From: a virus
Lineage: Duplodnaviria; Caudoviricetes
DNA: 64,000 nucleotides
Reading direction: 5' to 3' (one strand)
Virus record (IMG/VR): IMGVR_UViG_3300030376_005231
Span: 678-64,677 of that record
Under the pieces are notes generated by a model that saw nothing but the letters and a program-made list of their open reading frames with translations, made no database searches and was not told the DNA's origin. Positions 9,389 through 64,000 of the stretch are shown here, piece by piece. Position numbers and translations under genes: made by a program. Each line of letters starts with the position of its first letter. Within the stretch, counting starts at the first letter, position 1.

Positions 9389-11731
9389 ATGGCAATTAGA
9401 TTTTTAAACAACCTAGATTTAGGCACTAACGAGATACAAAACGTAAAAGCTCAAAACCTAGCATCTGACCCTGCGGGATATGCAGGTCAGTTTATATTCA
9501 ACACTACATCTAACACATTTAAATACTATAATGGTTCAGGTTGGGTTAGTTTAGATGGTACAGGAGACATTTCAGCTGTTGTTGCAGGTGCGGGTCTATC
9601 CGGTGGTGGTACATCAGGAAGTGTTACTTTAGCTGCTGATTATGCAGGAACAGATAATATTATCTTAGCTGCAGGAGACGGAACAGGTGTTACTGTAGCA
9701 ACCGGTGATAGATTAATGCTTTCAGACGCAACAGATAATGCGGTTAAATATATTAATGTAAGTCAACTTCCTTCTTCAGGAGGTACTGTTACAAGTGTAG
9801 CATTAACAGAATCAGGTAATGCATTGACTATTACAGGTAGTCCAATTACTTCTTCAGGAACACTTAATATAGCAGGAGCAGGAACTTCAAGTCAAGTTGT
9901 ATTAGGAGATTTAACATTAGGTGATTATTTTACAGGTACTGTTACAAGTATTGCGGTTACAGGCGGAACAGGAATTGGAGTTTCAGGTTCACCTATAACA
10001 TCTTCAGGAACTATAGCATTATCAAACACAGGTGTAACTTCTATTGTTGCCGGTACTAATGTTACTATAAGTGGTGCAACAGGTGAAGTAACAATTAATG
10101 CGTCTACACAAGGTGATATTACAGGTGTAACTGCAGGTACAGGATTGTCCGGTGGTGGTACTACAGGTTCTGTTACTTTAAATGTTGACTATATTGGAGC
10201 TGATAATATTATTGAAGCAGCACCTGACAAATCAGGAATTACTGTTGCGACAAGTGACAAGATTTTATTATCGGATGCTACTGATAATAATGCAGGTTAT
10301 ATAACCGTATCACAATTACAAACTTCTATTGGTGGTGGTACAGTTACAAGTGTAGCTGCTTCAGGAGCTAATGGAATTACCGTTTCCGGTTCTCCAATAA
10401 CAAGTTCAGGAACACTAGCATTTGGAATTTCTGCAGGAGGTATACAGAATGACAGACTAGCTAACAGTACAATAAGTGGTGTTTCTTTAGGAAGCAACTT
10501 GGCAAGTCATACTGTTAGTAGTGGACTTTCAGGAAGTTCATACAATGGTTCTACAGCTGTAGAATGGTCTGTAAATTATGCCGGAACAAGTAACGTTATT
10601 TTAAGCGGAACTAATGATGCAGGTAGTGCAATAGGTACATCTGATAAAATTCTAGTAAGTAATTCATCTAGTAATGCTGTAGAGTATCATAATGTATCTG
10701 ACTTACCTTTTGATAATTCAGGTGGTACGGTAACTTCTATAGCAACTCCGACAGACGGTGGTTTAACAGGAGGTACAATAACTACTTCAGGAAGTTTAAG
10801 ACTTAAAAACTATGCTTCATTAAGTGCGAACAAGGTATTGAAATGGGATAATAGTAACAATCAGTTAACTGACTCCCTAATGACAGATGATGGTTCAACA
10901 GTAACTATCGCAGGTAACTTAACAGTTAATGGAACAACCACAACAATAAATTCTACTGTAGTATCTATAGCAGATAATATGATGGAATACGCTAACGGTA
11001 ACGATGTTGCCGGTGGTGGTGCTAATTCACTAGACATTGGTTGGTTTGGTAATTATGTAATATCTAGTACAGATTACTATCCTGCTATGTTCTATGATGC
11101 ATCAGCATCTACAAGTGCAACAGCTCCTAAATTTAGATTAGGTAATGCTACATCTAAACCGGGTAATACAGCAACTATAGCAAATGTAGGAACATTAATA
11201 GCAAACGTTGAGGGTACAATTACCGGTAACGCATCAACAGCAACTAAACTTGCTACTGCAAGAACAATAGCTCTTACAGGAGACGGTGCATGGTCAGTAT
11301 CTTTTGATGGTTCGGCTAACGTAACTTCAGCTTTAACACTTTCTACTGTAAACAGTAATGTTGGTAGTTTTGGAAGTGCATCAAGTACTTTAAGTGCGAC
11401 AGTAAATGCTAAAGGTTTAGTTACTGCAATGTCAGCATCTGCAATAAGTATTACAGCATCACAAGTATCTGATTTCTGTACAGCTGTTGAATCATGTATT
11501 GGTTCAAGCCATACGTATGCACAGAATATTGGAAATGGTTCTGCTACATCTTATACAGTATCTCACAACTTTGGAACAAGAGATGTGATAGTACAAGTAT
11601 ACGATACAGCATCGCCTTATGATACATTATATTTAGAAGTTCAAAGAACGAGTACGAATGCCTTAACATTATTAAGTACATCAGCAATTTCGTCTAACGG
11701 AGCAAGATGTTTAGTGACTAAGGTGGCATAA
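9389..11731 (+). CDS. Tail fibre protein
   Basis: G/T/S rich; repeated GTVTSVA and AGTGLSGGGTSGSVTL motifs; C-terminal VSHNFGTRDVIVQVYD module. Confidence 0.85.
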   Translation: MAIRFLNNLDLGTNEIQNVKAQNLASDPAGYAGQFIFNTTSNTFKYYNGSGWVSLDGTGDISAVVAGAGLSGGGTSGSVTLAADYAGTDNIILAAGDGTGVTVATGDRLMLSDATDNAVKYINVSQLPSSGGTVTSVALTESGNALTITGSPITSSGTLNIAGAGTSSQVVLGDLTLGDYFTGTVTSIAVTGGTGIGVSGSPITSSGTIALSNTGVTSIVAGTNVTISGATGEVTINASTQGDITGVTAGTGLSGGGTTGSVTLNVDYIGADNIIEAAPDKSGITVATSDKILLSDATDNNAGYITVSQLQTSIGGGTVTSVAASGANGITVSGSPITSSGTLAFGISAGGIQNDRLANSTISGVSLGSNLASHTVSSGLSGSSYNGSTAVEWSVNYAGTSNVILSGTNDAGSAIGTSDKILVSNSSSNAVEYHNVSDLPFDNSGGTVTSIATPTDGGLTGGTITTSGSLRLKNYASLSANKVLKWDNSNNQLTDSLMTDDGSTVTIAGNLTVNGTTTTINSTVVSIADNMMEYANGNDVAGGGANSLDIGWFGNYVISSTDYYPAMFYDASASTSATAPKFRLGNATSKPGNTATIANVGTLIANVEGTITGNASTATKLATARTIALTGDGAWSVSFDGSANVTSALTLSTVNSNVGSFGSASSTLSATVNAKGLVTAMSASAISITASQVSDFCTAVESCIGSSHTYAQNIGNGSATSYTVSHNFGTRDVIVQVYDTASPYDTLYLEVQRTSTNALTLLSTSAISSNGARCLVTKVA

Positions 11732-57375: not shown

Positions 57376-57912
57376 TTATTTTATTAAAGACCTAACTTGT
57401 TTCTGTGTGTATGCATAATTATTTTCATCTAAATAATTTATAACAAACGCCATATTTTTATCTTCAGAACTTAATGATGCTATCCACTTTAAAAACATTG
57501 GTATATCTATATCTCTTTTTTCTTTAGGTTGAGACACAGGATATAAAGAAGGAGCAGTTTGTAATTCTTTCTGTTGGTCTTTTGCATTTTTAACTTCCTG
57601 AACAGAAGCTATTCCTGAATCTATTCCGATTCCAAAGTTAGCCAAAGCTCTACCCCATGCAGATGTTTCACAATTTTCAATGTGTGATGTTTTATTAATA
57701 AAACCTACACCTTTGATTTCCTCAGCTAAACCTGTTGCTACTATTTTACCTTCTGCATTAGAGATAACACCTTGAAGAAGAATAGAATTTTCAGTTTTCT
57801 CAATAACTTCTGTAACTAATGAAAAGTCTTTGTAGTTGTTTCTGAAATACTTTAGTCTTTCATGTACTTCAACATAATCTTTTCCTTGAATTTTAATTGT
57901 TTTTAATTTCAT
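57376..57912 (-). CDS. Single-strand annealing protein (Rad52/Sak-like)
   Basis: GKDYVEVHERLKYFR, INKTSHIENCETSAWGRALANFGIG; adjacent to exonuclease. Confidence 0.8.
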   Translation of the reverse strand: MKLKTIKIQGKDYVEVHERLKYFRNNYKDFSLVTEVIEKTENSILLQGVISNAEGKIVATGLAEEIKGVGFINKTSHIENCETSAWGRALANFGIGIDSGIASVQEVKNAKDQQKELQTAPSLYPVSQPKEKRDIDIPMFLKWIASLSSEDKNMAFVINYLDENNYAYTQKQVRSLIK

Positions 57913-62008: not shown

Positions 62009-62057
62009 CTGTTTCATCCTTTTGGAATCATCAGTCGAGACACTCATCTCGATACAG
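62009..62057 (-). ncRNA. Type III hammerhead ribozyme, copy 1 (variant)
   Basis: CUGUA^UCGAGA-UGAGUG-UCUCGA-CUGAUGA-UUCC-AAAA-GGAU-GAAA-CAG; U.U replaces the usual G10.1-C11.1 pair. Confidence 0.75.
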
Positions 62058-62087
62058 GAGCAGTTTAGTATCTTACTCAGGATATCG

Positions 62088-62118
62088 CAAATGTACGAAA
62101 AATAAACGAAACTACAAA
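62088..62118 (-). promoter_or_regulatory. Bacteroidota promoter directly upstream of the hammerhead 1 module
   Basis: TTTG-N19-TACATTTG. Confidence 0.8.
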
Positions 62119-62119
62119 A

Positions 62120-62512
62120 TTACTCTGTAACTTCCTCTTCTTCTTCCTCTTCTGCCTTGTCAAATTTAATTGCAATATCAAACTTTTCATCTTCATCGAA
62201 TTGACCACATATCTCATCCCAAACATGTTCTTCAATAGCGATTGTTTCTCCACCATAACAGGAGTCTTGAATGTATTCTTTGAAGCTATCAATGAATCCG
62301 TATTCATCATAATGAATGTCATCACAGATGCTTGGATTAGAATTATTGTCTGATAGCACATACAAATCATAACCATCTTTTGAAGTCTCTGTCCATGCGT
62401 ATTTGTCTGCTGAACTGATTTCCCAAATTGAGTAGCCGATTTCTAGCTGAAAATCCATAGCTGTTAAAAATTCTTTAGTGTTCATTTCACTTAATTGTTC
62501 TCTTGTGTACAT
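62120..62512 (-). CDS. Acidic protein (130 aa) between the two hammerheads
   Basis: Start re-assigned to MYTREQL after AAATAACATT leader; D/E rich; ends EEEEEEVTE. Confidence 0.7.
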   Translation of the reverse strand: MYTREQLSEMNTKEFLTAMDFQLEIGYSIWEISSADKYAWTETSKDGYDLYVLSDNNSNPSICDDIHYDEYGFIDSFKEYIQDSCYGGETIAIEEHVWDEICGQFDEDEKFDIAIKFDKAEEEEEEEVTE

Positions 62513-62537
62513 AATGTTATTTATTAATTTAATATTT

Positions 62538-62586
62538 CTGTTTCGTTCTTTTGAACTCATCAGCACAAGCACTCACTTGTGGACAG
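62538..62586 (-). ncRNA. Type III hammerhead ribozyme, copy 2 (canonical)
   Basis: CUGUC^CACAAG-UGAGUG-CUUGUG-CUGAUGA-GUUC-AAAA-GAAC-GAAA-CAG; full catalytic core and GUC site. Confidence 0.92.
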
Positions 62587-62618
62587 GAGCAGTTTGGTAT
62601 CATGCTCAGGATAGTCTG

Positions 62619-63551: not shown

Positions 63552-63811
63552 AATGTTTTTTATTTATTTAATTATTAATATAATGCAATACTACAACTAT
63601 TATTTTAATTCTCGTGCATTTTTTGTATAAATTTTTATTTATTTATTTGTTGACTTTGTAACTCATTGATTGTCAGCACATTATGTCAGTACATTTCACT
63701 ACGATTTATTTACATGAAATTTAGGTTGAGGTGATGCACTCTTAAATCTCTTAGCTCCTAAGCAGATTATAAGATTTATATATGGATATATTAGAGGGAA
63801 GGTAGTGGTAT

Positions 63812-64000
63812 GGGGGTAGGTAGGTGGGGGTATGCGTTACGTTAAACGTACAGCAGTAGGTGGACAGGGGGGTAGGGGTAGAGGGTGTCAGGGGTCAGGC
63901 AAATTTGAAAAAAATCCGACTGCGATGGTGGAAAAAATTACCCCCCTAGCTTTTTAATTTTGATTTTCTTTTGGCGGGTTGTTGCGTGTGACGGGGGGGG
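63812..64000 (+). other. G-rich, GC-skewed non-coding terminal region with a G-quadruplex motif
   Basis: Many G runs in an otherwise AT-rich genome; G6-TA-G4-TAGA-G3-TGTCA-G4 at 63867-63894. Confidence 0.6.

Follow-up and report, generated by a model that had tools for sequence, protein, structure and literature searches.

The locus considered here raises the question of why the same extension of about 30 nucleotides (nt) is found directly 5′ of two hammerhead ribozymes in one phage, and whether it serves the ribozyme or has an existence of its own. The two hammerheads are located in a stretch of 64,000 nt (positions 678 to 64,677 of IMG/VR record IMGVR_UViG_3300030376_005231; Duplodnaviria, Caudoviricetes), which is referred to as the window. 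Between 62640 and 61980 on its minus strand, an ArdC-like gene was found to be followed by a first cassette (copy 2), a gene of 130 amino acids (aa), a second cassette (copy 1) and a gene of 76 aa. Each cassette contained a 27-nt module followed, with zero gap, by a type III hammerhead. The module was found to be an H-type pseudoknot, and it is an autonomous phage element and not a part of the ribozyme.

The module of copy 2 contained the nucleotides UAUC (62613-62610) in the 5′ strand of stem 1 (S1), CU (62609-62608) in loop 1 (L1) and GAGCA (62607-62603) in the 5′ strand of stem 2 (S2), followed by U (62602) in loop 2 (L2), GAUA (62601-62598) in the 3′ strand of S1, CCAAAC (62597-62592) in loop 3 (L3) and UGCUC (62591-62587) in the 3′ strand of S2. 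In copy 1, S1 was composed of UAUC (62084-62081) and GAUA (62072-62069), L1 of CU and L3 of CUAAAC, and S2 of GAGUA (62078-62074) and UGCUC (62062-62058) with one U.G pair included. The module contained an S1 of four base pairs (bp) closed by C-G, an S2 of five bp (GAGYA/UGCUC), a single-nt junction and an A-rich L3 with AAAC at its end. The extensions read UAUC-CUGAGUAA-GAUA-CUAAAC-UGCUC-CUGU-A in copy 1 (62084-62053) and UAUC-CUGAGCAU-GAUA-CCAAAC-UGCUC-CUGU-C in copy 2 (62613-62582), and the letters and coordinates given for both by an earlier account of this DNA (the preliminary description) were exact on the minus strand.

Relatives of the cassettes were gathered by four scans, namely with loop I and the core, with the core alone, and twice, in viral and in metagenome contigs, with AAAC at a constant spacing from the core; S1 and the 5′ strand of S2 were left free, and the pairing partners of the module were not used as bait. 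The 56 non-identical cassettes with the window's module were counted separately in two length classes (alignments A2 and A3), whose choice fixed a part of the 3′ strand of S2 (T[GA]C[TC]) and left the 5′ strand and the outer pair free. All four core pairs of S1 were found to covary and to be paired in about 100% of the cassettes (for example AU:18/GC:7/CG:6, UA:18/AU:13 and CG:27/GC:4), and S2 was paired in 99-100% with compensatory changes at the outer (GC/AU/UA/GU), the second (AU/GC) and the fourth (CG/UA/UG) pairs. When the partners were slid by 1-3 columns as a control, overall pairing fell from 94% to 29-47%. The covariation of S1 was found also in 100 copies free of a hammerhead (UA:45/AU:30/CG:9 and GC:48/AU:19/CG:10/UA:8). 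S1 and S2 were each backed independently by covariation, and the H-type pseudoknot pairing, as judged from these alignments, is genuine and beyond chance; the UAUC/GAUA stem and the pairing of GAGYA with UGCUC, both proposed in the preliminary description, were borne out. In two loci (L242:2885-2972, minus strand, and L319:2885-2972, plus strand), a hairpin of about 20 nt (UACGUAAAACGAUACGUA) was found to be inserted into L3, and S1 (AGAC/GUCU) and S2 (AAGCA/UGCUU) were kept despite the insertion, which is therefore a further argument for the knot.

Both hammerheads were found to contain a complete core, with CUGAUGA, GAAA (in GAAAC-AG), a U16.1/A15.1 pair and A or C as the nucleotide H17. The conserved core was accompanied in both by the type III arrangement, with a loop-capped stem I of six bp, a loop-capped stem II of four bp (loop AAAA) and an open stem III of four bp. 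In hammerhead 2, C17 was found at 62582 with the predicted cut between 62582 and 62581, followed by stem I (62581-62564, loop UGAGUG) and stem II (GUUC/GAAC). In hammerhead 1, A17 was found at 62053 with the predicted cut between 62053 and 62052, followed by stem I (UCGAGA/UCUCGA, loop UGAGUG) and a stem II that starts with a U10.1.U11.1 mismatch. The pattern CTGATGA-N8-30-GAAAC was present at these two sites in the window against 0.14 expected, no further copy of the core pattern was found in the whole 64.7-kb virus record, and the exact sequence AAACTGCTCCTGT occurred at these two sites only. Hammerhead 1 scored 30.3 bits and hammerhead 2 scored 18.1 bits against Rfam family RF00008, and no match was obtained in gathering mode (gathering score 48.5); these sub-threshold scores come from the short stem III and the loop lengths and not from the core. 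Stems I, II and III were found to covary in the 56 related cassettes. A 45-nt stretch of hammerhead 1 was 91% identical to a Bruynoghevirus phage hammerhead, and the hammerhead of phage PaP3 (Bruynoghevirus) was reported to be active.

The hammerhead core of Pseudomonas phage phiIBB-PAA2 (L335:640-760; KF856712.1, about 1030-1150) was likewise found to be 91% identical to that of copy 1. Stem III of this hammerhead from cultured Bruynoghevirus phages is abutted by a long-range helix (AAAGGGG...CCCCUUU) and contains, in its 3′ strand, the start codon annotated for orf01; the hammerhead is unannotated in the records.

The UGCUC strand of the module had also been proposed to switch between the loop of the knot and an invariant GAGUG in loop I, and thereby to gate cleavage as in an allosteric hammerhead. 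Such a pairing can be drawn in the two copies of the window, with five pairs of which two are G.U. Among the relatives no changes on both sides were found, and the observed values equalled those of shuffled controls. As UGUGUA is the prevailing loop I, the central U-A pair was absent in 21 of 31 and in 19 of 25 relatives; UGAGUG, which holds the supposedly invariant GAGUG, was present in only about one third of the family. More than 99% of the listed module-only matches contained the knot without any loop I. Two mutually exclusive conserved pairings were not found, and a ribozyme switched in this way was rejected as extremely improbable.

The distribution of the module was followed with a module-only pattern of 16 fixed bases (CCT-N-AGCA-N-G-N5-AAAC-TGCT), to which copy 2 of the window is an exact match; the counts from the scans are to be read as minimum values, and the proportions are tied to the choice of pattern. 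The viral contigs were found to contain at least 138 distinct copies in at least 120 loci, and the module was present in at least 130 viral contigs. Among the matches listed, a hammerhead was found behind 1 of 138, and the module is therefore not specific to hammerheads. At the positions left free by the pattern, S1 and S2 were fully formed in 133 of the 141 viral copies listed and well formed in 83 of the 127 copies listed from genome contigs (one genome per species, bacteria and archaea), against 5% expected by chance in either set. About one third of the genome-contig matches are probably due to chance, and statements on context were based on the well-formed copies. The contigs that contained well-formed copies represented at least 12 bacterial phyla by assignment, including Firmicutes, Bacteroidota, Cyanobacteria, Actinobacteria, Proteobacteria, Chloroflexi, Planctomycetes and Patescibacteria. 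A search of Rfam with the window and 30 module-bearing loci, in gathering mode and at E<=10, returned no family for the knot, PreQ1-I (RF00522) included. No description of the module was found in the literature by topic or by motif sequence, and it may be among the unnamed candidates in catalogues (e.g. PMC10690425). The module is apparently undescribed and a candidate for a new RNA family missing from Rfam.

The relation of the module to the ribozyme was examined at the boundary of stem III. The junction between S2 and stem III was 0 nt in all 56 aligned cassettes; where one more nucleotide was present before stem III, it was found to pair with the 3′ strand as a fifth stem III pair (pair 36-86, 100% paired, four pair types), and S2 always abuts stem III without a linker because the extra nucleotide joins stem III. 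In a wider, non-redundant set of phage type III hammerheads, recovered with the core alone, 79% of the 210 listed members were preceded by a helix of at least five bp that ends at the stem III boundary, followed by a stem III of mostly 4-5 bp. The distance from the upstream helix to the scissile bond was 5-6 nt in 126 of the 204 listed. These upstream helices were mostly plain GC-rich hairpins, often with GUGUC-UUCAAA-GACAC at the apex, and about 4% were the knot of the window. Phage hammerheads are thus regularly docked onto a structured module that already exists. In the metagenome set further pseudoknot sequence classes were found at the position of the knot, for example CCAG-uuc-GAGGGU-CUGG-auuaacaaa-ACCCUC and GAG...GAGAGGUU-CUC...AACCUCUC.

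The hairpin GUGUC-N6-GACAC (typically GUGUCUUCAAAGACAC) was found at least 661 times in the fetched loci, 87 times next to a hammerhead. In viral contigs of about 60 kb it was observed at the apex of the helix that precedes most hammerheads, and it is itself an autonomous, dispersed intergenic repeat (L063:3007, 4917 and 5746; L076; L078; and others), which may act as a terminator or a regulatory hairpin specific to phages.

These findings bear on the possibility that the module is a helper of the hammerhead, in which S2, in the manner of the plain hairpins of most relatives, stacks coaxially on the 4-bp stem III and holds it, speeds folding or cleavage, or shifts the balance of cleavage and ligation. 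The constant abutment in the cassettes, the assignment of the extra nucleotide to stem III instead of a linker, and the frequency of helices at the boundary of a short stem III are in favour of such a role. However, selection for a short 3′ tail would lead to the same abutment just as well, a hammerhead accompanies almost none of the listed modules, and stacking cannot be the general function of the module because a spacer of 4-8 nt is present before transfer RNAs (tRNAs). A helper role as the reason for the module is thus considered rather unlikely. Of the accessory domain for steadying stem III that the preliminary description had envisaged, the geometry was retained, as the S2 strand abuts the short stem and a coaxial stack is plausible; its dedication to the hammerhead was not. 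A likely side benefit that remains is the stacking of S2 on the 4-bp stem III, which may help the ribozyme.

The sequence 3′ of S2 contained a single moderately conserved A and nothing else that was conserved. A tRNA was found after the module in 17 of the 268 copies listed, 4-8 nt past S2, the 5′ end of the tRNA being the site of RNase P. Eleven of these 17 were tRNA-Asp(GUC), and in several of the contigs concerned the gene before the module was phrog_1221 (no known function). The cultured Synechococcus phage S-CRM01 contained one copy (NC_015569.1 130828-130851), 6 nt before tRNA-Asp. The spacer before the tRNAs matches the tail of 5-6 nt that is left after the hammerhead cut. In locus L362, a DUF2800 RNA (Rfam RF02960, 159.9 bits; 260-445) was found to begin 1 nt after S2, and the knot therefore prefaces other structured phage RNAs too. 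Three tandem modules bracketing short GC-rich structured segments were observed in L441:7390-7600, followed further along the locus by a partial match resembling transfer-messenger RNA (11486-11558); this locus looks like a processed array of small RNAs.

The position of the module behind coding sequences was analysed with open reading frames (ORFs) that were assigned mechanically, every open frame of 180 nt or longer being taken. In 38.8% of the copies listed, the invariant CCU was preceded at 8-13 nt by the stop codon of a same-strand ORF, against 2.3% of random positions in the same loci, a 17-fold enrichment. The mode of this distance was exactly 8 nt, which places the stop codon 4-5 nt ahead of the first S1 pair, and almost no copies were found at 0-7 nt. 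In the hammerhead-linked copies the stop was located within 7-16 nt in 46 of 54, again with a mode of 8, and copy 2 of the window showed the same spacing, with TAG followed by CAGAC and then by UAUC (5 nt). All three stop codons were used (TAA 79, TAG 26 and TGA 12). No family was found to dominate among the upstream genes, which were diverse; phrog_1221 was the largest group (13 of 113), followed by anti-restriction, SSB, RIIB, RNR and head proteins.

For a ribosome with a stop codon in the A site, a distance of 4-5 nt is about the nearest place at which a structure in the messenger RNA (mRNA) channel escapes unwinding. The footprint of the terminating ribosome would explain the minimum distance between stop codon and knot. 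The topology also resembles the compact frameshift knots of the luteovirus type. A role linked to translation may be considered, in which the knot, held at the mRNA entrance of a ribosome with the stop in its A site, acts on termination or on the next step, by blocking downstream sliding or re-initiation, by insulating the following RNA or gene, or by modulating termination. The sharp lower bound and the mode of 8 nt, the use of all three stop codons and the location of the module directly before tRNAs, hammerheads and the DUF2800 RNA are consistent with it. Against this, a recognisable ORF end adjoins only about 40-46% of the copies listed, copy 1 of the window lies far from its stop codon, and the spacing may equally be read as the nearest position at which the knot stays wound. 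No sign of recoding was found either: a stimulator of frameshifting or read-through would fit the spacing, and it was rejected because slippery heptamers were not enriched (8 against 7 in a control window) and the read-through extensions were short (median 14 codons). A role linked to translation is accordingly judged improbable.

The reading that is tentatively preferred, at somewhat less than an even chance, is that the module is a compact knot at the end of a cistron, by which the message upstream would acquire a structured 3′ end followed by a short tail. Phages would place the knot as near behind the stop codon as the terminating ribosome allows (4-5 nt), and a few nucleotides upstream of the next element. 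In the phage of the window, stem III follows directly on the last base of the knot and self-cleavage is predicted 5 nt past it, and the upstream message, first that of the ArdC-like gene and then that of the 130-aa gene, would therefore end in the knot, a tail of 5 nt and a 2′,3′-cyclic phosphate. The mRNA of the ArdC-like gene, after the cut of hammerhead 2, would end in the pseudoknot followed by CUGUC, whereas the downstream message would begin with the folded body of the hammerhead and a 5′-OH, about 24-25 nt before the AUG. Elsewhere, RNase P would make the cut at the tRNA, and host endonucleases may do so too. RNase II and PNPase come to a halt several nt 3′ of a structure that is stable, and for RNase R an overhang of about 7 nt or more is required. 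A knotted 3′ end with a tail too short for engagement would resist such 3′-to-5′ exonucleases, and the positional evidence points to a putative stabiliser of 3′ ends that acts by blocking them. The RNase III sites of phage T7 and the repetitive extragenic palindromic (REP) elements stabilise upstream cistrons in a like manner.

Four observations weigh against a 3′-end role. More than 90% of the modules listed were followed neither by a tRNA nor by a hammerhead, and a downstream cut would have to be assumed for most copies. Copy 1 of the window was located 35 nt, and not 5 nt, from the stop codon, behind promoter-like sequence. Nearest-neighbour folding of the isolated module gave -2.7 and -4.7 kcal/mol, no better than shuffled sequences, with S2 appearing as a weak hairpin and with z-scores that were not significant; this method cannot represent a knot, and therefore the case for the knot rests on comparison and its stability would have to come from tertiary contacts. 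Finally, the sequences of L1, S2 and L3 were found to be strictly conserved across phages of many phyla, which seems to be beyond the need of a simple roadblock and keeps alive the alternatives linked to the ribosome or to a specific partner.

The conserved sequence of the knot hints at a specific partner, and a binding site may be envisaged in which a universal protein or a small ligand would be received by a pocket or surface made up of the invariant L1 (CU), S2 (GAGCA/UGCUC) and L3 (AAAC), as an operator or a riboswitch-like element comparable to the T4 gene 32 pseudoknot and the preQ1-I aptamer. The sequence, and not the pairing alone, is kept across at least 12 phyla, the size, the topology and the A-rich 3′ loop recall small pseudoknot aptamers, and the distance to the downstream start codon was found to peak at 20-39 nt, often with an A/U-rich stretch before the codon. 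However, a ligand pocket would hardly fit at a single-nt junction, the flanking genes are functionally diverse, the Rfam search gave no match to PreQ1 even at E<=10, and translational control would be senseless at some copies because the module also precedes tRNAs and ribozymes. A specific binding site is regarded as quite doubtful. In its general form, the proposal of a knotted cistron end is that the CCU-GAGCA...AAAC-UGCUC knot represents a new, host-independent class of phage cis-acting RNA, a universal full stop at the exits of coding regions that would act via conserved machinery (the terminating ribosome or the 3′ exonucleases) and that phages of most bacterial phyla would join as a module to hammerheads, tRNAs and other structured RNAs for the punctuation of polycistronic transcripts; this wider proposal is put forward with still more reserve.

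Table 1. Location of the modules, the hammerheads and the neighbouring features (positions of the window, except in the last row).
Feature	Position	Strand	Basis or detail
Pseudoknot module, copy 2	62587..62613	-	Sequence, covariation, exact match to module-only pattern
Pseudoknot module, copy 1	62058..62084	-	Sequence, covariation
Type III hammerhead 2	62538..62586	-	CUGAUGA 62563-62557; stem III CUGU (62586-62583)/ACAG (62541-62538)
Type III hammerhead 1	62009..62057	-	Stem III CUGU (62057-62054)/ACAG (62012-62009); full-length RF00008 match
ArdC-like anti-restriction gene, 310 aa	62619..63551	-	ORF; stop TAG 62621-62619
130-aa gene, acidic, between both cassettes	62120..62512	-	ORF; stop TAA 62122-62120
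Downstream gene, 76 aa	61754..61984	-	ORF; AUG 24 nt past hammerhead 1
Match to Bacteroidota promoter pattern TTTG-N19-TAcaTTTG	62088..62118	-	Sequence reads TTTG-N19-TACATTTG
Loci with module + tRNA-Asp(GUC)	L341, L357, L358, L372, L379, L397, L440; NC_015569.1 130828-130930		

The ArdC-like gene (Table 1) was found to contain the Pfam domains ArdcN (5.6e-21) and MPTase-PolyVal (zincin domain; 2.7e-27) and was assigned to phrog_7245, anti-restriction. The 130-aa gene was without a family match in the comparison with Pfam and PHROG; its AUG was located 25 nt past hammerhead 2 and its stop codon 35 nt 5′ of module 1. Between this stop codon and module 1, the match to the Bacteroidota promoter pattern was found to end 3 nt short of the module, and the stretch was kept in the close relatives L232, L275 and L297. 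The pattern was not enriched in the window (6 matches against 4.1 expected) and the match is not significant alone. As a candidate promoter it may cause some transcripts to start at the knot of copy 1; if it is active, the knot would stand at the 5′ end of such transcripts, from which a 5′-triphosphate leader of about 35 nt would be trimmed by the hammerhead. A scan for sigma-70 promoters and terminators gave no terminator, and promoter-like matches at the level of shuffled sequences.

A possible third copy of the module (57548-57560) was only a partial match within coding sequence and was rejected as a module. A G-rich stretch was observed at 63790-64000 on the plus strand, with GGGG runs, GGTAGG repeats and a terminal GGGGGGGG; it lies at the end of a genome that is otherwise AT-rich, beside the early region, and may represent either a genome terminus or a repeat.

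The existence of hammerheads in phages has been known since 2011. Most of them are found here to sit directly behind a structured module, which in the phage of the window is a tiny pseudoknot with a separate existence. The knot stands out by its abundance, by the conservation of its sequence over many phyla and by its fixed distance from stop codons. A testable model of ribozyme-based mRNA punctuation is suggested, in which the knot would guard the upstream message and the body of the ribozyme would cap the downstream one. Being small (27 nt alone, about 80 nt together with the hammerhead), the element could help to insulate genes in synthetic operons.

The hammerheads of the window share with the type III hammerheads described from phages and prophages (RF00008; Perreault et al. 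2011, PMC3088659) the canonical core of CUGAUGA, GAAA, U16.1 and H17, the closed stems I and II with an open stem III, the presence of several copies bracketing single genes in a phage operon, and the natural occurrence of U.U or A.A at 10.1-11.1. They differ in that the Rfam score of the window copies is below the threshold. The pseudoknots of known hammerheads, moreover, join the stems or loops I and II, whereas the knot of the window lies 5′ of stem III, beyond the limits of the ribozyme, as a module independent of it.

Among the H-type pseudoknots, those of luteoviruses, such as the -1 frameshift knot of beet western yellows virus (BWYV), are like the phage knot in a size of about 28 nt, a 2-nt L1 that starts with C and a single-nt junction. 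Both the BWYV-type knot and the phage knot have an A-rich 3′ loop placed for the minor groove of S1 and are located 5-8 nt downstream of the A-site codon. The phage knot differs in that it follows a stop codon and not a slippery heptamer, with slippery sites not enriched and no extended frame, and in that it is found in DNA phages, often before non-coding RNAs. The preQ1-I aptamer and the T4 gene 32 operator are likewise small H-type pseudoknots with an A-rich 3′ loop that are located upstream of genes; the phage module is without a match to RF00522, differs from them in the lengths of loops and junction, and is not bound to one gene family.

The hairpins at RNase III sites of phage T7 and the REP elements or bacterial interspersed mosaic elements (BIME; malE-malF) are structures that are likewise placed past a cistron and just upstream of a cut or a 3′ end. 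The phage element, in contrast, is a pseudoknot and not a hairpin, the RNA behind it would be cut by a ribozyme or by RNase P and not by RNase III, and it has kept its sequence in phages of many phyla; the protection, familiar from those stabilisers, would apply to it by analogy of position. As with the T7 and REP stabilisers, the arrangement predicts a differential stability of the upstream message.

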